A stretch of 64,000 nucleotides of DNA, from the sequence record PX436236.1; one strand, given 5' to 3'. This document shows positions 2,810-61,727 of this stretch, one piece after another. The first letter of the stretch is position 1, and the number at the start of each line of letters is the position of its first letter. The stretch is from a phage. Under the pieces are notes generated by a model. That model did not search any database and was not told the origin of the DNA. It saw only the letters and a list, made by a program, of their open reading frames with translations. The position numbers and the translations under genes were made by a program.

Positions 2810-3010
2810 TTAGTTACTTGAATCGACCTTATAGACTTGTCCGCGGGTTTGGTAAACTTCGCCGTCCCATGTCTCGACTGTAATAGTCACGTATTCTGCA
2901 AACTGAGGTCTAGTATCAGTCCAGATATAACCGTATTCACCGGTGACGAGCGTAACCCAGTACTTTCTCATAAAGTCTCCTTTTGTATGGCACCAATTAG
3001 TACCATACAT
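2810..3010 (-). CDS. hypothetical protein, 66 aa
   Basis: ORF between topoisomerase gene and terminator. Confidence 0.4.
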   Translation of the reverse strand: MYGTNWCHTKGDFMRKYWVTLVTGEYGYIWTDTRPQFAEYVTITVETWDGEVYQTRGQVYKVDSSN

Positions 3011-3015
3011 ATTTA

Positions 3016-4833
3016 TTACGACATCCAGGCCTTACGGAGTTGAGGGTCATTACCAAGGAGCATTTCGAACTGTTCTTTCCAATCTTCAGGTAATTGAACC
3101 ACATCAAATTTAGGGTCTTGAATCATTCGACGGTATTCAGCTTTCTCAAGAGAACCTAGTCCTTTGATATAACGAATAGAATGTTTTGGTAGAGAATCCT
3201 TAGCTTTGGTATAACTAGGCACATCATAGAACCATTCCTGTTCTTTACCAATCTGGGCAATAATTACCGGAGTTTTACAGAAACGTACTCGGCCTTGTTC
3301 GAACAATTCAGGCCATTGACTAAAGAAGGCTAGCAATGATGGATAAATCGAACCAGTACCATCCACATCGGCATCAGTCATAATAGCAATATTACGATAG
3401 TTAGTTTTCTCTGCAGGTTCACCAATAACCAATCCAGTGATTGCACAGATATCAAATAGTTCCTTGTTCTTCATGATATCTGTTGCTGTCATTCCCCAGG
3501 TATTCATAACCTTACCACGCAATGGGTAACCACCTTGAAGGTCTTTATTACGAACTTCAATGAAAGGACCCATAGCGGAATCCCCTTCGGTTAGGAACAG
3601 GGTTGTATCAGCATCTTTGCCGTATAGGTTAGCTTTAATATGCTTATGGACCTTGGCTTTAGAAGCTTTCTTAGCGGCTTTAGTTTCGGCAGCCTTTTCA
3701 GCTGCTAATTTACGTGCTAAAGCAGCTTCAACGATAGGCATAATCAACCCATCAACTTTAAGAATGGCTTGAGCAATTTTCTTAGCATCAATTTGGATAT
3801 GATTGCGAATCTCACCAAAAGGAGAGGTCAAACGTTCTTTAGTCTGTGAATCAAAACGCATGTTGCTCATATCACGAATGAACATCACCATCGTAAGGCA
3901 TTCTTTAACACGAGCTTTAGTTACTTCAATTCCACGGTATTTCTTTTTAATGCCTGGCAGAAGGTGTTCACAAATATCATCGAATACACATTCAACGTGG
4001 TGGCCACCATTCTTGGTGTGGATATTGTTTACATAAGTCAGTTGACGGAATCCATCCGGAGAAGGAGTGAACGCCATCGAAACATTATCGGTTTCTTGGA
4101 TTACAAAGTCTTCACCAAATTGCTTAGCATACTTTTTAAAGTTGCCATCTACTTTTTTACCATTAAAAGTAAATTGAATATCAGGATAAACTACGGCCAG
4201 AGTTTGCAATCGGTCTAATGTAATATCCAGATAAATTTGTGACAGGCTATTTTCTTCGAAATGATTAAAGTCTGGGGTGAATATAACCGAAGTACCCTTA
4301 CCTTTAGATTTCTTAGTAGACCAACCTTTGTTTTCCATTCCGTTTGAACAGTTAACAGTAATCTCATTCTCACCATCAGAGGTGATGCCTGTGAACAAAA
4401 CAGAGAAGATATTAGTTAAACTACTACCGACACCATTCATGCCGCCTGTCTTACGCTCAGCGTCATCTCCAAAGTTACCACCTGCCTTTGGAATAGTCCA
4501 TGCAGCTACAGGACCTGGAATCTGTTCACCATTTTGGTCGGTGACCATTGCTTGTGGAATACCACGACCATTATCAGAAACTGAAACCTGGTTATTCTTA
4601 ATTTGAACATCAATTTTATTTGCGAATTTAAAATTGGTACGAATAGCTTCATCGACAGAGTTATCAATGATTTCATCAATTAATTTAACCAGTCCAGGAA
4701 CATAGTTTACCTGTGTAAAATTACCAAACAGGAATCGACCGTGAGCTTCATTAGCACTTGAGCCAATATACATCCCACTACGTTTTTTGATATGTTCAAT
4801 GTCGGACAGTACTTTAATTTCATTCTTAATCAT
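3016..4833 (-). CDS. 39: DNA topoisomerase II large (ATPase) subunit, gp39 with gene-60 portion fused, 605 aa
   Basis: N-terminus MIKNEIKVLSDIEHIKKRSGMYIGS and GyrB-like motifs; 605 aa is the size of a single uninterrupted 39+60 ORF. Confidence 0.9.
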   Translation of the reverse strand: MIKNEIKVLSDIEHIKKRSGMYIGSSANEAHGRFLFGNFTQVNYVPGLVKLIDEIIDNSVDEAIRTNFKFANKIDVQIKNNQVSVSDNGRGIPQAMVTDQNGEQIPGPVAAWTIPKAGGNFGDDAERKTGGMNGVGSSLTNIFSVLFTGITSDGENEITVNCSNGMENKGWSTKKSKGKGTSVIFTPDFNHFEENSLSQIYLDITLDRLQTLAVVYPDIQFTFNGKKVDGNFKKYAKQFGEDFVIQETDNVSMAFTPSPDGFRQLTYVNNIHTKNGGHHVECVFDDICEHLLPGIKKKYRGIEVTKARVKECLTMVMFIRDMSNMRFDSQTKERLTSPFGEIRNHIQIDAKKIAQAILKVDGLIMPIVEAALARKLAAEKAAETKAAKKASKAKVHKHIKANLYGKDADTTLFLTEGDSAMGPFIEVRNKDLQGGYPLRGKVMNTWGMTATDIMKNKELFDICAITGLVIGEPAEKTNYRNIAIMTDADVDGTGSIYPSLLAFFSQWPELFEQGRVRFCKTPVIIAQIGKEQEWFYDVPSYTKAKDSLPKHSIRYIKGLGSLEKAEYRRMIQDPKFDVVQLPEDWKEQFEMLLGNDPQLRKAWMS

Positions 4834-13867: not shown

Positions 13868-14109
13868 AGGAAACCTCGTTTAAATTCAACTTTATCGATA
13901 TCATCAGTCTCGTGACGGATTTCGGCATTAAATTCGATAGAACCGTCTTCATGCATCATAAATGAATGGACAATAACTTCGGTATACCAAGGAGTATAAA
14001 AGTACTTTTTCAATACATGATTAGCGATAATTTCATCTAAAGTTTTATTTGGTTTAATCCAACGATTTAACATAGCATTCTCCTCTATAAGATAAGACCA
14101 TCTTAACAT
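13864..14109 (-). CDS. hypothetical protein, 81 aa
   Basis: ORF. Confidence 0.45.
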   Translation of the reverse strand: MLRWSYLIEENAMLNRWIKPNKTLDEIIANHVLKKYFYTPWYTEVIVHSFMMHEDGSIEFNAEIRHETDDIDKVEFKRGFL

Positions 14110-14135
14110 AACCTTCTTAGAAAGTAAACCCTTAA

Positions 14136-14163
14136 AACCAAAAAAGGAACCCGAAGGTTCCTT
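14136..14163 (-). terminator. Terminator hairpin (AAGGAACC-UUCG-GGUUCCUU) with U6
   Basis: Perfect stem, UUCG loop and TTTTTTGG directly downstream of soc. Confidence 0.55.
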
Positions 14164-14167
14164 ATAA

Positions 14168-14401
14168 TTAAACTACTGGGGTCGGCGTAAACATCGCCGC
14201 GTTCTTAGTTCGCCAATCGGCTGCATCAGTTACTACAGTAGTGTATGCCGCCTTTTCAGAAGGAAATGTCTGATAGTGTGCATTCGCAATACGATGCTCG
14301 TTTGAATAGATTTCAAACGGAACAGATACTTCAACACCTTTAACTTCTTTACCTTCACCAGCCGGATGCGTAAAGGTTTTGATATTAACGAAACCACCCA
14401 T
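14168..14401 (-). CDS. soc: small outer capsid protein Soc, 77 aa
   Basis: GFVNIKTF ... ANAHYQTFPSEKAAY matches the remembered T4 Soc sequence. Confidence 0.8.
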   Translation of the reverse strand: MGGFVNIKTFTHPAGEGKEVKGVEVSVPFEIYSNEHRIANAHYQTFPSEKAAYTTVVTDAADWRTKNAAMFTPTPVV

Positions 14402-14432
14402 AATAAACTCCTTTGTTGTTTAATTACAGGTG

Positions 14433-14440
14433 TATTTATA
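14433..14440 (-). promoter_or_regulatory. Late promoter TATAAATA upstream of soc
   Basis: Exact TATAAATA on the minus strand about 30 nt before the soc ATG, then AAGGAG RBS. Confidence 0.5.
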
Positions 14441-14444
14441 CTGC

Positions 14445-14678
14445 TTATTTTATCATAACCTTTTTAGTTAAAAGCTCGTCAGGATGCCTTCTGGCGTATG
14501 AAGGGCTTTCTTTTACTGGGGTATTTGAAATAACATCGCTTAATTTATCAGCTCTAGCTTTTAATTCTACGTGTTCTTTTGAATCTTTAAAAGGATGACT
14601 AATTATTTGCAAATTAAGACCATGTAATTCATATTTAAGCCCTTCCATAAATCTTGCTGGGCCCCCGTAATTATTCAT
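14445..14678 (-). CDS. hypothetical protein, 77 aa
   Basis: ORF between soc and the HNH endonuclease gene. Confidence 0.35.
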   Translation of the reverse strand: MNNYGGPARFMEGLKYELHGLNLQIISHPFKDSKEHVELKARADKLSDVISNTPVKESPSYARRHPDELLTKKVMIK

Positions 14679-15519
14679 TTTCGAACCTCTTTACCATGTT
14701 TATATAATTTTCGTCTGGATAACCTAAACTAACTGCTAACTTTCTAAAATTCACATATTTTGGTTTGTTATTAGCAATCCATAAATTCCTAAGCTCAGTT
14801 TCATAATTCCATTTGAGTTGATTGCCTCTAGCAGTTTTGCTCAAAGTTTTTCCTTTATCTTTTAGAGCTTTTTCCGAAGACTGTTTTAATTTTTGGAGAT
14901 TTAAAACTTCCTCAACAGATAAATTATTTTCTTCTGCATAGCGCGCACAAAAATCTTTTACTGTAGCTATTAGACAGTTTTTGTGGGTACCTAAAACTTC
15001 CGGATTATTTTCTTCAACCAAAACTCCCCAGTATCTTCGATAGCGAGGCATATCCCGCGAAATCCAGTCATTATACCAGAAATCAAAATTAGAATACATA
15101 AAGGATTTTCTTTTACGGAGAATGTCTTGCTCTATCCACTCCCCGCGTTTATCGGCCCATAACTTAATAGTAAGGTCTTTCTCTAAATCAGAAAGCTTCT
15201 TAAACTGGGCACTATTTGTTAGTGTCATTCTCTGGAATGCATTAAGCAAACCCACCACCTGAGTTGAGCACAAAAGATAATGAACATATATGTGTTGGTA
15301 TATAGGAAGATAGACCCTATTCCAAGGAGAGATTTTAAAATCGCTGTATTCTGGAAATGCACACTTCGGAAGTATATGATGAGCTTCCGTTTTAGATTTG
15401 GTATGGACGTTTAGTTTATACTTATCTATAATTTTTAAGTAATCATCTAAAAGTTCCCATTGCGGGAACTTTTCTTTAAGAACAGATTTGAAATTAATAT
15501 CCATTGTCCTGGCGTTCAA
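14671..15519 (-). CDS. HNH homing endonuclease, 282 aa
   Basis: HNH motif EAHHILPK...N...H; C-terminal LGYP..NY segment shared with the HNH gene at 50778-51542; sits in the soc-56 interval. Confidence 0.6.
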   Translation of the reverse strand: MNARTMDINFKSVLKEKFPQWELLDDYLKIIDKYKLNVHTKSKTEAHHILPKCAFPEYSDFKISPWNRVYLPIYQHIYVHYLLCSTQVVGLLNAFQRMTLTNSAQFKKLSDLEKDLTIKLWADKRGEWIEQDILRKRKSFMYSNFDFWYNDWISRDMPRYRRYWGVLVEENNPEVLGTHKNCLIATVKDFCARYAEENNLSVEEVLNLQKLKQSSEKALKDKGKTLSKTARGNQLKWNYETELRNLWIANNKPKYVNFRKLAVSLGYPDENYINMVKRFENE

Positions 15520-16012
15520 AGTTGTGTTTATTTTTCAAATAATAAAGTTTAAACATTTCTTCGGCCGTCATATTCAGGCCAATAGCCATATTGAATACGA
15601 AGTGCATGATGTCAATGAGTTCGAATTTAATTTCGAGTTGGTCTTCAGGAGACATTTCTGAAATAGGTTTGGCCTGTGCTTCTGGATAACGAGCTTTCCA
15701 TTTTTTCCAGACAGCAGATGCATCTTTCTCACCTTTAGACATTTCACCAAGTGAAGTCAGAAGTTCACGGAATTCATCGTCAATACAATCTTTCTGTTCA
15801 CGCATCCAAGCAACAACATCACCGGCTGTCGCTAATTTGTCCGGATGGTAACAATATTCACGGTCATTAGCCAAACGAACCTGTAAAGATTTCTGCATAT
15901 CAAGCATAACTTGCAGAGGGTCTTTATCTTCATGAATCAGAGCATTAAAATAAGCTTCCTCAGCTTTATCAACACCATCAATCAGGTTTGCGCATTCGTT
16001 AAAGTATGCCAT
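15494..16012 (-). CDS. 56: dCTP pyrophosphatase gp56 (MazG-like), 172 aa
   Basis: N-terminus MAYFNECANLIDG resembles T4 gp56; size and position agree. Confidence 0.8.
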   Translation of the reverse strand: MAYFNECANLIDGVDKAEEAYFNALIHEDKDPLQVMLDMQKSLQVRLANDREYCYHPDKLATAGDVVAWMREQKDCIDDEFRELLTSLGEMSKGEKDASAVWKKWKARYPEAQAKPISEMSPEDQLEIKFELIDIMHFVFNMAIGLNMTAEEMFKLYYLKNKHNFERQDNGY

Positions 16013-16050
16013 TATATTTTTTCCTTTTCAATTCATTAGTAAGTTAGATA

Positions 16051-16074
16051 ATTATAAACTGTTAGATTAAAGCG
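16051..16074 (-). promoter_or_regulatory. Candidate middle promoter upstream of gene 56
   Basis: CGCTTTA (MotA-box-like), 11 nt, TATAAT on the minus strand. Confidence 0.35.
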
Positions 16075-16103
16075 AATAAATATTAATTTAACAGGAGGAT
16101 AAC

Positions 16104-16304
16104 ATGGGCAGTATTTTTTACCAAATCTGGAAATTGGCCGAAAAGAAAGACAGGAAAATGATGTTAGGTTTTCTTGCGCTAGACGTATTCCTTTGGAATC
16201 TTCTAGTAGTCCCTGTAGCCGCTAGCCAAGGGATAATTTTACCAGCGGTTACAATGGAACACGTGTTAAGCATAATTGGATTCTTTAGCGGAGTTCCTGC
16301 CTAA
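16104..16304 (+). CDS. small hydrophobic protein, 66 aa, the only convincing plus-strand ORF
   Basis: Strong SD (acAGGAGGataacATG) in a 288-bp gap with no minus-strand coding; product is a predicted membrane protein. Confidence 0.4.
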   Translation: MGSIFYQIWKLAEKKDRKMMLGFLALDVFLWNLLVVPVAASQGIILPAVTMEHVLSIIGFFSGVPA

Positions 16305-17329
16305 ATTTTAGAATATTTTGAAAGTCTCATTTTTGCCATTAAACCTTGGGCTATATTAGCTTTCATATATGCCAGTACATCATTTATATCAGCTTTATCT
16401 TTCATAATCATATCATTTATATCTTTAGAAGGCCATGGAGCCTTGTCCCAGAATAGAACCCTTTCGCCAGCATCAACTAATCGTTGCATACGCTTAATTG
16501 TGTCAGGATGGCGGGGTTCATTGTCCATTACCCAGGCACGAGTTTCTTTACATGGAACCATAGCCAAGTCCAACGACCCGCCAGTAATTGCTATTGCATT
16601 CGGAACAAACAAAGAGTCAATAGGGCCTTCCATTACCCACACCAACTGACGTTCGTCAACTGTATCCATTCCATATATTTTTGTAGCTTGGTCATGAGCT
16701 TTTATTGTAATATATTTTTGTGGAGCATCTTTACGTAAGGCTCGACCCTGAAAACTTTCAATTTGTTTATTCTTATTGAAAATTGGAATAACCAAACGAG
16801 GCTCAGGCATTTCTTTAGAATAGGTCCCTGGATTGACAGAGTTCACCAATGCCGGCCATTCTTTAGTAAACCACAGCCGGTTCCATTTGTTTTCAGGAAT
16901 GCAACGTAACGTCACATATTTGATAATAGGATGGTCCTTTGGCATTCTATCTAGTCGTTCACAGAAATTAAGCTTTTCGATGACAGGCATCTTGGCTTTA
17001 ATTTTTTCAGATATCTCCACCTTAGGTGCAGCTTGTCTCCCGAACGATTGCTCTTTATGTTTCTCAAGAATATATTCTCGATATAAATCAGGCTCATATT
17101 CGTATAGATACTTCTTAATTCCTGCTGAATAGTCACAGTTAAAACAGTGCAGCATTACGGAGCCGTCATTGGCCGGATAGGCCCAAAAACGAGCTTTGTT
17201 CTCATCTTTTAGGGAGTCGCCACATACACGACAACGACAGTTTAATTTAAAATCACTACCAGTTACTTGTCTGAATTTAGGTTGATAATTCAAGGCACGT
17301 ACAGCAAATTCTCTATCGACATATGACAT
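16301..17329 (-). CDS. 61: DNA primase gp61, 342 aa
   Basis: Zinc ribbon CRCRVCGD...CFNCDY, TOPRIM region, C-terminus AQGLMAKMRLSKYSKI as in T4 gp61. Confidence 0.9.
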   Translation of the reverse strand: MSYVDREFAVRALNYQPKFRQVTGSDFKLNCRCRVCGDSLKDENKARFWAYPANDGSVMLHCFNCDYSAGIKKYLYEYEPDLYREYILEKHKEQSFGRQAAPKVEISEKIKAKMPVIEKLNFCERLDRMPKDHPIIKYVTLRCIPENKWNRLWFTKEWPALVNSVNPGTYSKEMPEPRLVIPIFNKNKQIESFQGRALRKDAPQKYITIKAHDQATKIYGMDTVDERQLVWVMEGPIDSLFVPNAIAITGGSLDLAMVPCKETRAWVMDNEPRHPDTIKRMQRLVDAGERVLFWDKAPWPSKDINDMIMKDKADINDVLAYMKANIAQGLMAKMRLSKYSKI

Positions 17330-17367
17330 TATTTTTCCTTGGGCTCTAAATTAATAGAGCCATTATA

Positions 17368-17529
17368 TCATTCGTTTTCGGATTTTTCTTTACGCTTTTT
17401 AGATGGGATTTGTTCAGGCCCTTTGTTGACGACCGCGCCTGAGGTAGTTCCGGAGGCAATATTAGATGGGTTACCACCTGCATCGCCTGCGACCATATCT
17501 TCGTTCATAACTTCTTTAAAAGATTTCAT
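17368..17529 (-). CDS. possible small protein, 53 aa
   Basis: Own translation MKSFKEVMNEDMVAGDAGGNPSNIASGTTSGAVVNKGPEQIPSKKRKEKSENE; AGGAG RBS. Confidence 0.3.
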   Translation of the reverse strand: MKSFKEVMNEDMVAGDAGGNPSNIASGTTSGAVVNKGPEQIPSKKRKEKSENE

Positions 17530-17545
17530 AGGCTCCTGGCCTTAT

Positions 17546-17755
17546 TTATATTACGAAAATAGCTTTATCACCATTTGCATCAGTGACTTCGTACGTATCT
17601 TCGTGGTAAAGTGGAATAATCCAAGTCACACCATCACCGGCAATAATATGGATAGCTTCTTGGTCCTTTGATACGATTTCATACTCTTCGAATAATTCGA
17701 ATACAGAAATCTTAGAGCCCGTACACATTGCACTCATATTGTTCCCTTCTCTCAA
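17546..17755 (-). CDS. hypothetical protein, 69 aa
   Basis: ORF. Confidence 0.4.
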   Translation of the reverse strand: MREGNNMSAMCTGSKISVFELFEEYEIVSKDQEAIHIIAGDGVTWIIPLYHEDTYEVTDANGDKAIFVI

Positions 17756-17933
17756 TCAGTTGGCGATGGGCCTTTTTAAGTTTACGAAGCTGGCGCTTAG
17801 TCGGCCGTGCGACATAAGCTTGAGTAGTTACTCGTCCAAAAACACCATACTTAGGTGAAGGAGAATCGATAAAGACTTCCCACTGACAAGAGTAACTATA
17901 CACCGCTTTAGAGAATTGAGTTAAGACAAACAT
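17712..17933 (-). CDS. hypothetical protein, 73 aa
   Basis: ORF. Confidence 0.4.
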   Translation of the reverse strand: MFVLTQFSKAVYSYSCQWEVFIDSPSPKYGVFGRVTTQAYVARPTKRQLRKLKKAHRQLIERREQYECNVYGL

Positions 17934-17934
17934 A

Positions 17935-18375
17935 TTAACCTCGATTCATAAAGGCATTAAAAATCTGGTCATCTATTGAATAAACCGGGGCTTCCAGAAT
18001 TTTCAACAGACTGTTTTTGATATACTTGCTAGGGATATCCATATTAACACAGTCGTTCAATTCGTTGTCCGGGAGAATATGTTTAAATTCAAACCCATCA
18101 AACTCAACCTTGTCAGGAATACCTTCAGCGAAAAAATAAACCAATTGGTGCATTGTATTGCACGAAAATAATTTAGACCTCACCGCGATAAGTTCTTGCC
18201 AATGGTTTAATTCTCTGTTAAGAAGTTTATGAGCCATTGTAATTCGATCATCGCTATCAACAAGAAAATAACCCAGGTATTGGTGGTCGTCGCTCCAAAA
18301 CATCCTGTATGCTTGTGCATTTGGATTTTTACAACGAAGTTTTTTGATAACTAAATTTCTGTTAATCTTATTCAC
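17935..18375 (-). CDS. hypothetical protein, 146 aa
   Basis: ORF. Confidence 0.5.
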   Translation of the reverse strand: MNKINRNLVIKKLRCKNPNAQAYRMFWSDDHQYLGYFLVDSDDRITMAHKLLNRELNHWQELIAVRSKLFSCNTMHQLVYFFAEGIPDKVEFDGFEFKHILPDNELNDCVNMDIPSKYIKNSLLKILEAPVYSIDDQIFNAFMNRG

Positions 18376-18661
18376 CTGTCACCTCTTTAACGATATTTTT
18401 GTTATCGAAATTGGCATCACAATACAAATTCCAGTTATATTGCATAACACCACCTGAAGCTAATTGGTCTGACACTTCTTTAGCCATATCAGGGCGGTCG
18501 CGTTTAGTGATGTTCATGATATCGGCATAAATCTGATGTTCAACCGATTCTTGGTCTGCAGTCATAGACCATTCACAAAGGTCTTTATCTAATCCAGCCG
18601 TAACTGGAGCTGTGCCACATGATGCTACTGTAAGGATTGCTGCGATTAATAACTTTTTCAT
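18368..18661 (-). CDS. secreted protein, 97 aa, candidate Spackle (superinfection exclusion)
   Basis: Cleavable signal peptide; same length and genomic position as T4 sp. Confidence 0.5.
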   Translation of the reverse strand: MKKLLIAAILTVASCGTAPVTAGLDKDLCEWSMTADQESVEHQIYADIMNITKRDRPDMAKEVSDQLASGGVMQYNWNLYCDANFDNKNIVKEVTGE

Positions 18662-18677
18662 AATGTTCTCCTCGGTA

Positions 18678-18719
18678 GTTGATAGGGGTAATATACTACA
18701 TTACCCCTTTGATGTAAAC
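18678..18719 (-). promoter_or_regulatory. Early-promoter cassette
   Basis: GTTTAC, spacer, TATATT, CCCCTATCAAC; inverted repeat GGGGTAAT/ATTACCCC flanks the -10. Confidence 0.5.
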
Positions 18720-18721
18720 TG

Positions 18722-18925
18722 TTATTTTTCGTTAGAACGATAATCACACTCAAAAACTTTATTGTCATCAACAAAGGCTTTCACCAGCGCATTATTCACT
18801 TCTGCATACTGCACTGTAACCCATTCAATCATATTTTGGTCACTAACATCTAGAACGGTTTCTTTGGTAAACATATTACCATTTTCAAACCAACCAATAA
18901 ACACTACTTTCTCTAATTTAGGCAT
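18722..18925 (-). CDS. Dmd-like small protein, 67 aa (candidate antitoxin-type RNase inhibitor)
   Basis: N-terminus KVVFIGWFENGNMFTKE recalls T4 Dmd from memory; clear paralog of the next ORF. Confidence 0.4.
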   Translation of the reverse strand: MPKLEKVVFIGWFENGNMFTKETVLDVSDQNMIEWVTVQYAEVNNALVKAFVDDNKVFECDYRSNEK

Positions 18926-41994: not shown

Positions 41995-43068
41995 TTAAGA
42001 TTTCAAATAAGTTATATAACTTTCCAACCATTCAATCATTTCTGATTTTTCGGCAGTAGTCATAGGATTAACTATATCTTTAAAACTGTTAAGCATTACT
42101 TGAGACGTAACTTTTGTCTTTTCGGTTTTTACCAATTCGATAGAGCCAAGTTTTTTAATATGGTCTTCTTTGCTTTCGACTACTAATTTAACAGCTCTTC
42201 CATCTTTAATAGCTTTGTTAGCCTGACCGCGAGTCATACCGTAAAATTCTTCTAACTCGGAATTGGATAAAAATTTTGTTCCTGAAGAAACGTCCTGAAA
42301 TTTATAACGCTGACGAGCAATATCTGGTGGAAGGCCCCATCGGTCTTTAATTAGGTCGAGGGTTCCTTGAAGAAGCCTTGTTAAATGGTTGCTACTTAAA
42401 TCATTATTACGAGCGAATTCGTTTTGATTTATTACTTCCACCGGCTTGTTTTCTTCATAGTCCCATATAGTAAATTTAGAGCAATTATAGGTAACAGAAT
42501 GTTTTTCCATTTTAGAACGACCAAATTGCCATCCAGATTTAATATACTCACTAACTTCATCAGGTTTAACGTACTTGGTTTTCTGGCCAATTTTATACAT
42601 CATAGGCCAAGAAACATGCTCATTCCCTTTATCAAATTCCATCCATCTTGCAATATCATCCTCTGTTAAATCGTCAAAGCAGTTAGGGTTGAAATGCCCG
42701 CCAATTTGTTTATTGAGCCACATAGGGTCTCGTAAAACATCATTGGCTAATTGCATTTCCATTTCTGCCATAAGAGTTTTACCCCAAGTAGGGTACCATC
42801 CTACAATAAGATATTCTTTTGGACTTATACCCTTTTCTATCATTGCGTTCAATTCATTGGATGATGAGGTATAGGTTTTCCAATCAGATTCCTCAAACCC
42901 TTTTTTAGGACCACGTTTAAATGTGCAAGGTGCAGCTTTGATTCGTTTCCAAATCTTTTTAGCACCGACATATTTTTTGCCATCTTCAAAAGTGATTACA
43001 TACACAAATCCAATATAATTTTTAATATCAACTTCTTCAAATACCGCCCAATGCCCGAAATCTTGCAT
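41995..43068 (-). CDS. GIY-YIG (Seg-type) homing endonuclease, 357 aa
   Basis: N-terminal GFVYVITFEDGKKYVGA motif (GIY...YIG variant). Confidence 0.55.
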   Translation of the reverse strand: MQDFGHWAVFEEVDIKNYIGFVYVITFEDGKKYVGAKKIWKRIKAAPCTFKRGPKKGFEESDWKTYTSSSNELNAMIEKGISPKEYLIVGWYPTWGKTLMAEMEMQLANDVLRDPMWLNKQIGGHFNPNCFDDLTEDDIARWMEFDKGNEHVSWPMMYKIGQKTKYVKPDEVSEYIKSGWQFGRSKMEKHSVTYNCSKFTIWDYEENKPVEVINQNEFARNNDLSSNHLTRLLQGTLDLIKDRWGLPPDIARQRYKFQDVSSGTKFLSNSELEEFYGMTRGQANKAIKDGRAVKLVVESKEDHIKKLGSIELVKTEKTKVTSQVMLNSFKDIVNPMTTAEKSEMIEWLESYITYLKS

Positions 43069-43105
43069 GACCTATACCCTTACCATTATTAGATAAGGGT
43101 ATTTA

Positions 43106-43315
43106 TTATTTTTCAAATGTACTATAAAACGAGCGATGCAACCGTTTAAATTGACGAATCATCTTTTTAGTAGGACGGGTGTATAACCCTACACAAGTGG
43201 CCATAAACTGATCAGTAGGACTTCCTTTAATAAGAAGTTTCCAGACTTTACCGCCATTTAACTTTTCAGTATAAATCAGTTCAGTTTTCATAGTAAAACC
43301 CATATTCCATATCAA
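43106..43315 (-). CDS. hypothetical protein, 69 aa
   Basis: ORF. Confidence 0.4.
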   Translation of the reverse strand: MIWNMGFTMKTELIYTEKLNGGKVWKLLIKGSPTDQFMATCVGLYTRPTKKMIRQFKRLHRSFYSTFEK

Positions 43316-60818: not shown

Positions 60819-61216
60819 TATTTATAGGTCTTCATCCAATTCTTGAACAAAGCCGCGACGTCTTTCTCTTTAACGTTCAGTTTAATGTCCAACATTTTAC
60901 CACCCGCTGCTCTGGTTTGGCGAATCTTAGCAGTACCGGTTTCGCCATTCCACTCAACATAATACTGTCCAGTGTTCATTGCAATACCATCACCGTAGTC
61001 TTCATTTTTAGAAGTGGTGAATGCTAGCTTCATAGTCTTAGATACATGAGCCTGCATGCCTGTCTGAAGGGCATTACGAACGCGAATAACCTGAGGAGTG
61101 GCCTGGGTCAAGTTCTCATTCAGTTCTTCAGTGAACTCTTCAGATTCAAACATCGCCAAAAGTTCTTTAGATGCAGGAATTACATTCTCTGCGATAAATT
61201 CATTATAAGTTTTCAT
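60818..61216 (-). CDS. internal-protein-like packaged protein, 132 aa
   Basis: N-terminus [11 protein letters not shown]. Confidence 0.55.
60821..60828 (-). promoter_or_regulatory. Late promoter TATAAATA
   Basis: Exact octamer immediately upstream of the early promoter, giving the internal-protein gene both early and late signals. Confidence 0.4.
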
Positions 61217-61697
61217 ATGCTTTCCAAGTACCTGTTTTAAATGTTGAAATCACGCGCTTAGCACGATTAGGAGTTTGTTTATACCAACGGGATTGAGCCA
61301 GGTTAACTGCCGCATCGTTCCAACGTTTCTGTTGGAGCATACGTAAAGAGTTAGTGAACCCTGCTACGCCTGCTTCACCCATTTGGAAGACCATGTTAAT
61401 TAAAGCACAACGACGAACTTCGTCCAGTACATCATAAACAGGTTTCAATTTAGGATTACGCAGAATAGCTCTACGAGCATTTTCAACCGATCGGTTAAAG
61501 AGTTGTTCAGCTTCAGCCATAGTAATACGACCATTACAAACTCGACCTATAAGCTTATCAAGTTCAGCACGAGCAACATCTTTAGAAGGGTTCTTAGTAA
61601 TCAATTGGCCGATACCAATAGTCCAATAACCTTCAGTGTCTTTATAAAGATTTAAATCAAGACCTTCGTCTTGACGTAACATATCAAAAATATCCAT
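61203..61697 (-). CDS. e: lysozyme (endolysin, gene e), 164 aa
   Basis: Near-identical to T4 lysozyme ([16 protein letters not shown] ... [30 protein letters not shown]). Confidence 0.95.
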
Positions 61698-61727
61698 AAT
61701 ACCTCCTGAGTATAGGAGGTATTTATA
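61698..61727 (-). promoter_or_regulatory. Late promoter TATAAATA plus SD-sequestering hairpin upstream of gene e
   Basis: Minus strand: TATAAATA-CCTCCTATACTCAGGAGG-TATT-ATG; 7-bp stem pairs ACCTCCT with AGGAGGT. Confidence 0.6.

Follow-up and report, generated by a model that had tools for sequence, protein, structure and literature searches.

Lysis by phage T4, with the proteins T, RI, RIII and E and the spanins, is a paradigm, T4-type phages being the textbook case of holin-controlled lysis and lysis inhibition, and its gene list is regarded as complete. T is the essential holin and carries a large periplasmic domain, and RI and RIII are regulators. Here we describe a plus-strand open reading frame (ORF) at positions 16104 to 16304 of a 64,000-nucleotide stretch of phage DNA (record PX436236.1; this whole stretch is referred to as the window). 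The ORF encodes a 66-amino-acid membrane protein and represents a conserved, probably late, holin-related gene that was present in every Tevenvirinae lineage examined and is missing from the T4 reference annotation.

The ORF is already catalogued as an uncharacterised conserved ORF of the family phrog_2024. Its orthologues are named dam.1 in the T4T record (ADJ39749.1), RB32ORF030w and RB69ORF029w. Our literature searches returned no paper mentioning dam.1 or RB69ORF029w, and a broader one covering small proteins and ribosome profiling of T4 gave nothing relevant. New here are a conserved putative late promoter standing back to back with that of the neighbouring gene, purifying selection on the protein, three exchangeable subtypes together with duplications, and a profile-level link to the 3TM-type holins of prophages.

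Such holins are tied to lysis through the Pfam family PF11351 (GTA_holin_3TM) and two described systems. The putative holin rcc00556 of the gene transfer agent (GTA) RcGTA adjoins rcc00555, an endolysin needed for GTA release (PMC3423380). In phage ICP1, the holin TeaA, which dinitrophenol triggers, causes the proton motive force to collapse (PMC7182436). Both are lysis-associated small membrane proteins, and TeaA is the only one of the two whose holin activity has been tested experimentally.

In the window, the gene and its expression signals were located as follows.

16104 to 16304, plus strand: coding sequence (CDS) of a 66-amino-acid membrane protein, orthologue of T4 dam.1 and RB69ORF029w (phrog_2024), based on the ORF list, the phrog_2024 match, tblastn and selection
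16093 to 16098, plus strand: Shine-Dalgarno (SD) sequence AGGAGG, read directly and followed by the 5-nt spacer ATAAC and the ATG at 16104
16075 to 16082, plus strand: putative T4-type late promoter box AATAAATA, the A(-13) variant of TATAAATA, a conserved motif 21 nt before the ATG

The ORF translates to MGSIFYQIWKLAEKKDRKMMLGFLALDVFLWNLLVVPVAASQGIILPAVTMEHVLSIIGFFSGVPA. The original prediction had described a hydrophobic 66-residue plus-strand ORF in an all-minus-strand region, preceded by a near-perfect SD, lying in a 288-bp gap between genes 56 and 61 and ending tail to tail with gene 61. All of these features were found in the sequence. The gap without minus-strand coding spans 16013-16300, and the stop of the ORF shares 4 nt with the 3′ end of gene 61. 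Leaving aside ORFs nested in a longer minus-strand ORF, all long ORFs of the 64-kb window lie on the minus strand, and ORF 16104..16304 is the only plus-strand gene candidate. Identity over the region 15494-17329 was 95.5% with Escherichia phage AnYang and 90-93% with QL01, WG01 and JS98; on this basis, we assign the window to Dhakavirus, as a JS98-like phage of the T4 group.

Functional matches for the protein were sought in Pfam, PHROGs and NCBIfam. Only PHROGs gave a match (none in Pfam at E<=1 or in NCBIfam at E<=10): residues 1-64 aligned to positions 1-64 of the 65-position phrog_2024 profile with E=4.1e-28. We then compared the ORF with its relatives at the codon level. Synonymous sites were saturated and the protein was conserved, with proportions of synonymous (pS) and nonsynonymous (pN) differences of 0.80 and 0.14 against Marfa, 0.81 and 0.25 against Q7622, and 0.78 and 0.28 against CGG4-1. 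Within Dhakavirus, the ratio of nonsynonymous to synonymous rates (dN/dS) was 0.09-0.27.

The reading frame was open in every related lineage examined. A length of 61-74 residues, the SD and the invariant residues W31, N32, P37, G43, P47 and V49 persisted even where the DNA could no longer be aligned. All compared lineages carried AGGAGG, GGAGG or AAGGAG at the matching position upstream of the ATG, and the record of phage Marfa annotates this SD as a ribosome-binding site. A CDS is annotated here in QL01 and Marfa (in both as a hypothetical protein), in RB69, T4T and many other records, and the ORF is without annotation in JS98, AnYang and the T4 RefSeq entry. Given the family match, the spread, the selection and these constant features, we conclude that ORF 16104..16304 is a genuine gene under purifying selection.

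Searches with tblastn detected orthologues in ~1,000 Tevenvirinae records overall, which fell into three sequence subtypes that are mutually ~20-35% identical. The window subtype was detected at 55-98% identity in 122 records, from phages of Escherichia, Klebsiella, Enterobacter, Salmonella, Pectobacterium and Edwardsiella. The T4 dam.1 subtype accounted for 693 records and the third subtype for 279, including Jiaodavirus, STML-198 and Citrobacter CF1. Orthologues from T4, RB69, VR20 and PEi20 all matched the phrog_2024 profile. The family is nevertheless narrow, as an exhaustive profile search of 1.84 billion proteins yielded 19 cluster representatives.

Subtypes were exchanged between close relatives: within Gelderlandvirus, CGG4-1 carries the window subtype and STML-198 the third. 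Two tandem copies, a T4-type copy followed by a window-type copy, were found in Gaprivervirus (VR20, VR25, VR26 and P896) and in ESCO47. The second copy in VR20 (VR20 locus 1495-1899) is broken, as tblastn needed two pieces to cover it and a 46-residue ORF is left.

The conservation and synteny check suggested with the original prediction gave a consistent picture. In every Tevenvirinae locus inspected (the window, T4, QL01, Marfa, RB69, VR20, Q7622, CGG4-1, PM2, PEi20, KP1079, STML-198 and metagenomic contigs), the gene was conserved, lay on the strand opposite to its neighbours and was convergent with gene 61. The junction with gene 61 ranged from a 24-nt overlap to an 18-nt separation among relatives.

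In T4 itself (RefSeq NC_000866.4), the 309 bp that separate dam from gene 61 (positions 17626-17934) carry no annotation. This gap holds a 66-residue plus-strand ORF at 17738..17938 that matched phrog_2024 with E=5e-31 and has the same stop-to-stop overlap with gene 61 as in the window; the two loci also share the upstream sequence …gcgATAAATAttaatttaaAGGAGG…. The products of T4 dam.1, RB32ORF030w and RB69ORF029w belong to the same PHROG as the window protein (E 4e-28 to 5e-31) and are of similar size (65-66 residues). The T4 and RB69 genes also share with it the plus strand, the stop-to-stop arrangement, an SD, a late-promoter-like box and the invariant W-N...P...G...P.V pattern. They differ from it in forming a separate subtype, with ~20-28% identity to the window protein, and the gene on the far side of the gap is dam in T4 and 56 in the window.

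Names given to this ORF vary among records. It is misnamed 'DNA packaging ATPase' in the Klebsiella phages EI, MY02, VAC36, SAKp28 and UPEC01, 'thymidylate synthase' in SHP1 and phage 04086, and 'dCTP pyrophosphatase' in CGG4-1, dhabil and dhaeg. Two sources (OE5505 in UniProt, and KP1079) label it 'holin' or 'putative holin'.

We next considered when the gene is likely to be read. Among 50 listed T4 late promoters, 32 have a perfect TATAAATA and nine have A at -13, which is the commonest variant (PMC2988020). T4 late transcripts can have either polarity (PMC2988020). The box at 16075-16082 is of this A(-13) type and is the sole xATAAATA box on the plus strand of the window with an ORF of 25 or more residues after it. 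A box of the TATAAATA type, with a single deviation allowed, and a short leader before the SD, as expected of a late gene, were both found.

The box was conserved across lineages. Of the 14 annotated lineages, 12 have xATAAATA ahead of the ATG on the plus strand of the gap (two copies in KP1079, a single one in the other 11), and no lineage has it on the minus strand of the gap. Marfa and Q7622 carry the perfect TATAAATA. The remaining two annotated lineages and three further loci (L082-L084) carry ATTAAATA, so that TAAATA is common to 17 of 17. In these 17 lineages, the xATAAATA or ATTAAATA box stood 21-29 nt before the ATG in otherwise diverged flanks. Because a conserved late box lies upstream of the ATG and its A(-13) variant is accepted for T4, transcription probably starts near 16088, late in infection. 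The original prediction had offered a late gene as one option, and this idea is probably right.

The encoded protein was then analyzed for membrane segments and fold. Two stretches stood out.

16158 to 16226, plus strand: strong predicted transmembrane (TM) helix, codons 19-41, with invariant W31-N32 and P37, from hydropathy, invariant columns and AlphaFold2
16230 to 16295, plus strand: codons 43-64, with the turn motif G-x-x-[LIV]-P-x-V-x-[LMI]-[ED] followed by a marginal predicted C-terminal helix, from invariants, hydropathy and AlphaFold2

On the Kyte-Doolittle scale, the main helix scored 2.0-2.3, with a value of 2.1 for residues ~19-41, and the C-terminal helix 1.6-1.9. Residues 1-13 are amphipathic (Kyte-Doolittle mean -0.6) and are followed by the basic cluster K14 K15 D R17 K18, which by the positive-inside rule places the N-terminus on the cytoplasmic side. 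G43, P47 and V49 of the turn were invariant among Tevenvirinae members, and the C-terminal helix carries a conserved acidic residue. AlphaFold2, run on the family alignment, predicted helices at residues 3-10, 14-41 and 51-62 with a mean predicted local distance difference test score of 74.8. We also considered a dual-start holin/antiholin motif and rejected it, since the internal Met19/Met20 was not conserved.

The link to prophage holins came from the weakest hits of the exhaustive search (P0124-P0131), which had E values of 1e-7 to 3e-4 against the whole library (~1e-4 for P0129-P0131). These hits led to 71 loci, 68 of which were enterobacterial prophage loci, on contigs of ~7-40 kb (mostly ~30 kb), and three of which were T4-type phage genomes. 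The prophage proteins are 82-98 residues long, and in them the shared core is preceded by a charged linker. The phrog_2024 profile matched a prophage member with E=4e-10. In a profile-profile comparison with hhalign, the T4-type and prophage families matched with a probability of 98.5% (E=1.4e-15, 48 columns). Stricter sets, consisting of Tevenvirinae members only and of the 97-residue prophage type only, still gave 97.1% (E=4.8e-11). The match covered the C-terminal 44-48 columns in both runs, that is, the TM helix, the turn and the C-terminal helix.

Prophage members scored 25.8, 26.7 and 28.8 bits against PF11351, for which the gathering threshold is 24.8. Ten of 17 prophage proteins matched this family at E<=0.1, no other family matched more than two, and the alignments always fell on profile positions ~40-116. 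RefSeq names these proteins '3TM-type holin' (e.g. WP_047400628.1 from E. coli G3/10), and NCBIfam has no model behind this name, which is assigned by the Prokaryotic Genome Annotation Pipeline. The prophage gene lies in a late module with a tail fibre gene, a gene for a TM-plus-coiled-coil protein with weak Rz-like spanin matches, a T4-type lysozyme gene (Pfam Phage_lysozyme) and a gene for a SegE-like GIY-YIG protein. At one locus (L061), the gene heads the operon and the lysozyme gene is last.

The two types share the core [WY]N[FWY]xx[VI]P[VIL]...G[IVL]...P[LI] as well as an N-terminal amphipathic helix followed by a basic cluster. They differ in that the prophage protein is ~97 residues long, carries an additional ~30-residue charged linker, lacks charges in its C-terminal helix, and passes the PF11351 threshold, which the window protein does not. 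The three hydrophobic segments expected of a 3TM-type holin were not found in the window protein, which has one strong TM helix, a marginal C-terminal helix and an amphipathic N-terminus, and lacks the ~30-residue linker. Their contexts also differ: the prophage gene stands beside a T4-type lysozyme gene in a tail/lysis module, whereas the window gene stands beside primase. An adjacent endolysin gene, taken as one mark of a holin, was found in the prophage relatives only; in the window, the neighbours encode primase and dCTPase.

Prophage elements carrying this holin had further regularities. In the ~30-kb enterobacterial elements, the lysozyme gene was often on the opposite strand, two conserved unknown proteins (~190 and ~105 residues) were encoded, and the 3TM-type holin gene was at the very end. 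A prophage remnant in ybhA of E. coli G3/10 carries the module at 17266-18907. Neither the prophage-type holin nor the elements had a match in the phage genome collection. A search of complete E. coli genomes gave no near match to the prophage-type holin, and a distant-mode search returned 27 genomes.

Taken together, we favour the reading, at a probability of about 60%, that this gene of a JS98-like phage, orthologous to T4 dam.1, encodes a late, holin-derived accessory protein of the inner membrane, which would perturb the membrane or tune the timing of lysis. According to this model, RNA polymerase directed by gp55 would start at the variant late promoter AATAAATA (16075-16082) after the onset of replication. 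The leader of ~16 nt with its AGGAGG would allow efficient translation of the 66-residue protein, which would insert into the cytoplasmic membrane, leaving the basic cluster and the short amphipathic N-terminus on the cytoplasmic side. The membrane would be crossed by a single strong TM helix (residues ~19-41, with the invariant WN...P). The conserved G..LP.V..E turn would lead into the marginal C-terminal helix, which may re-enter the membrane or lie on its periplasmic face. This two-helix core is homologous to the C-terminal membrane core of the prophage 3TM-type holins (PF11351), the T4-type protein having presumably lost the charged linker of ~30 residues. With T as the main holin of T4-type phages, the protein would act late as an accessory, through membrane perturbation or by tuning lysis timing. 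A role in lysis is speculative; we put the chance of a lysis-related role at perhaps a third and that of another membrane function at about the same.

Several points weigh against this reading. T4 defective in t does not lyse. Because T4 requires T for lysis, the window protein is not a sufficient holin and would be an accessory at most. T, RI and RIII, lysis-controlling membrane proteins of T4-type phages, are unrelated to the window protein in sequence and size; a large periplasmic domain like that of T is absent from it. In T4-type phages, the gene is linked to primase and does not adjoin an endolysin or holin gene. Neither the window protein nor any of 23 aligned T4-type members matched PF11351, even at E<=10. 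The prophage intermediates themselves exceed the threshold of that family by only 1-4 bits, and profile matches between short hydrophobic proteins can be inflated.

Further points concern structure and the tested holin. TeaA is 182 residues long, scored ~0-2 bits against the T4-type and prophage profiles and had no plain Pfam match. As it is similar to neither profile and lacks a plain Pfam match, TeaA supports the function of the family only through the published report. A Foldseek search of viral structures returned family members only (E~0.02) together with noise, and a '3TM holin' at E=5.6 was non-significant. Acidic residues (E52, or D52/D56) are conserved in the T4-type C-terminal helix and absent in the prophage type. 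These conserved residues without a prophage counterpart suggest that the T4-type proteins have diverged in function. Considering the missing PF11351 match, the borderline intermediates, the dissimilarity of TeaA, the null Foldseek result, the primase linkage and the need of T4 for T, we therefore regard the window gene, on its profile relationships, as a shortened, divergent relative of the 3TM-holin family, and file it neither as a PF11351 member nor as a demonstrated holin.

A possible alternative, to which we give a minority chance, is that the gene encodes a real late membrane protein, descended from holins or not, that serves a purpose other than lysis, such as superinfection exclusion, countering a host membrane-associated defence or anchoring late assembly. 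The gene behaves like a diversifying gene, as its three subtypes, only ~20-35% identical, are exchanged between close relatives (CGG4-1 and STML-198) and tandem double copies occur in Gaprivervirus and ESCO47. T4-type phages carry it away from their lysis genes, sp (spackle) and dmd are among its neighbours on the opposite strand, and charged residues have been gained in the C-terminal helix of the T4-type proteins. However, the superinfection-exclusion and host-takeover genes of T4 are generally early or middle genes annotated on the minus strand, whereas the window gene has a late-type promoter, and holins are the only family relationship detected, functional matches having been sought in Pfam, PHROGs and NCBIfam.

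A bolder version of the favoured reading is that dam.1 and its orthologues are a second, overlooked late holin-family protein in T4 lysis control, for example depolarizing the membrane to trigger T or setting a host- or competitor-dependent timing. This would fit the three exchangeable subtypes and the tandem duplications, and we consider it unlikely.

Transcription of the locus offers another explanation, and it involves the neighbouring genes and a candidate promoter on the other strand.

15494 to 16012, minus strand: gene 56 (dCTPase/dUTPase), the divergent neighbour, from Pfam dUTPase_2 and phrog_173; annotated as gene 56 in JS98 and AnYang
16051 to 16074, minus strand: MotA-box-like candidate middle promoter of gene 56, CGCTTTA-N11-TATAAT (perfect -10), from a motif scan; it abuts the late box
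16301 to 17329, minus strand: gene 61 (DNA primase), the convergent neighbour, from phrog_47 (E=1e-95)

The same back-to-back promoter pair was found in AnYang, JS98, QL01, RB69, VR20 (with a perfect TGCTTTA), CGG4-1 and PM2. A T4 record from 1984 annotates a potential (early) promoter for dam, P(E)17.40, in the equivalent place, and its -35 element overlaps the late box by 2 nt. Across loci, the late box and the minus-strand promoter abut or overlap by 1-2 nt (16051-16082 in the window, 2437-2465 in the T4 record). In VR20, for example, the late box TAAAGCATAAATA overlaps the MotA box, reading TGCTTTA on the other strand. Such promoter overlap could account for the frequent absence of T at the first position of the late box. 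From this layout, the ORF and gene 56 appear to be divergently transcribed from back-to-back putative promoters. The original prediction had placed transcription of the ORF antisense to the gene 56 promoter region; this is not supported, as the candidate promoter at 16074..16051 on the minus strand lies back to back with the late box and the two units diverge.

On the gene 61 side, a scan of 15400-17400 for sigma-70 promoters and terminators found promoter-like sites no more often than in shuffled sequence and no terminator-like sites. As no terminator-like site was found there, late plus-strand transcription would continue into gene 61 in the antisense orientation. It could therefore be proposed that the plus-strand promoter serves mainly as a source of late antisense RNA against gene 61, or of read-through, with the ORF being secondary. 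The ORF does end within the 3′ end of gene 61, no intrinsic-terminator-like site follows, and T4 transcribes both strands at several sites at different times (PMC2988020). Against this stand the selection on the protein, with saturated synonymous sites and conserved amino acids; the retention of a 61-74-residue length, the SD and the invariant residues where the DNA is unalignable; the variable junction with gene 61, from 24-nt overlap to 18-nt separation; and the candidate gene 56 promoter, which is divergent rather than opposed. We regard this explanation as highly improbable. The original prediction had also suggested that the ORF could act through transcriptional interference; as the sole reason for its existence, this is very unlikely because selection acts on the amino-acid sequence (pN << pS).

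Finally, a chance ORF in an AT-rich spacer or an annotation artefact, to which the omissions from the T4 RefSeq, JS98 and AnYang annotations and the lack of a Pfam or NCBIfam match might point, is refuted by the conservation, dN/dS, synteny and family match and by the CDS annotation in QL01, Marfa, RB69, T4T and many other records, and has practically no standing.

If the gene has no role in lysis, it adds one more to the conserved small membrane proteins of unknown function, and its interest is modest unless a role in the T4 lysis programme is shown. Annotation of ~1,000 phage genomes, many of them therapeutic candidates, would become tidier if the gene were named and assigned to its family consistently, and a gene of 200 bp is a cheap and well-defined target.

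Other features of the region were also recorded. A minus-strand ORF of 51 residues at 16118..16273 was rejected as a real gene, having no counterpart in the homologous T4 gap. An Rfam scan of 14000-18500 gave a single sub-threshold CRISPR-repeat match within gene 61, which we judged to be due to chance.

Between soc and gene 56, a minus-strand ORF of 282 residues (14671-15519) resembles homing endonucleases (phrog_655, E=7e-31, and also an HNH PHROG) and shares 26 nt with the 3′ end of gene 56. At this junction, an endonuclease annotated as SegF is present in T4 and AnYang and none is present in JS98 and QL01. Because of this presence and absence, the soc-56 junction looks like a recurrent insertion site for mobile endonucleases.

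Late boxes were also seen on the minus strand of the window. Those at 14433-14440, 17543-17550 and 61720-61727 lie just upstream of soc (14168..14401), a 53-residue gp61.1-like ORF (17368..17529) and ORF 61203..61697, respectively. Boxes with the sequence AATAAATA at 43100-43107 and 3010-3017 lie just upstream of ORFs 41995..43068 and 2810..2971. Given these positions, a few genes of this 'early' region may also be read late.

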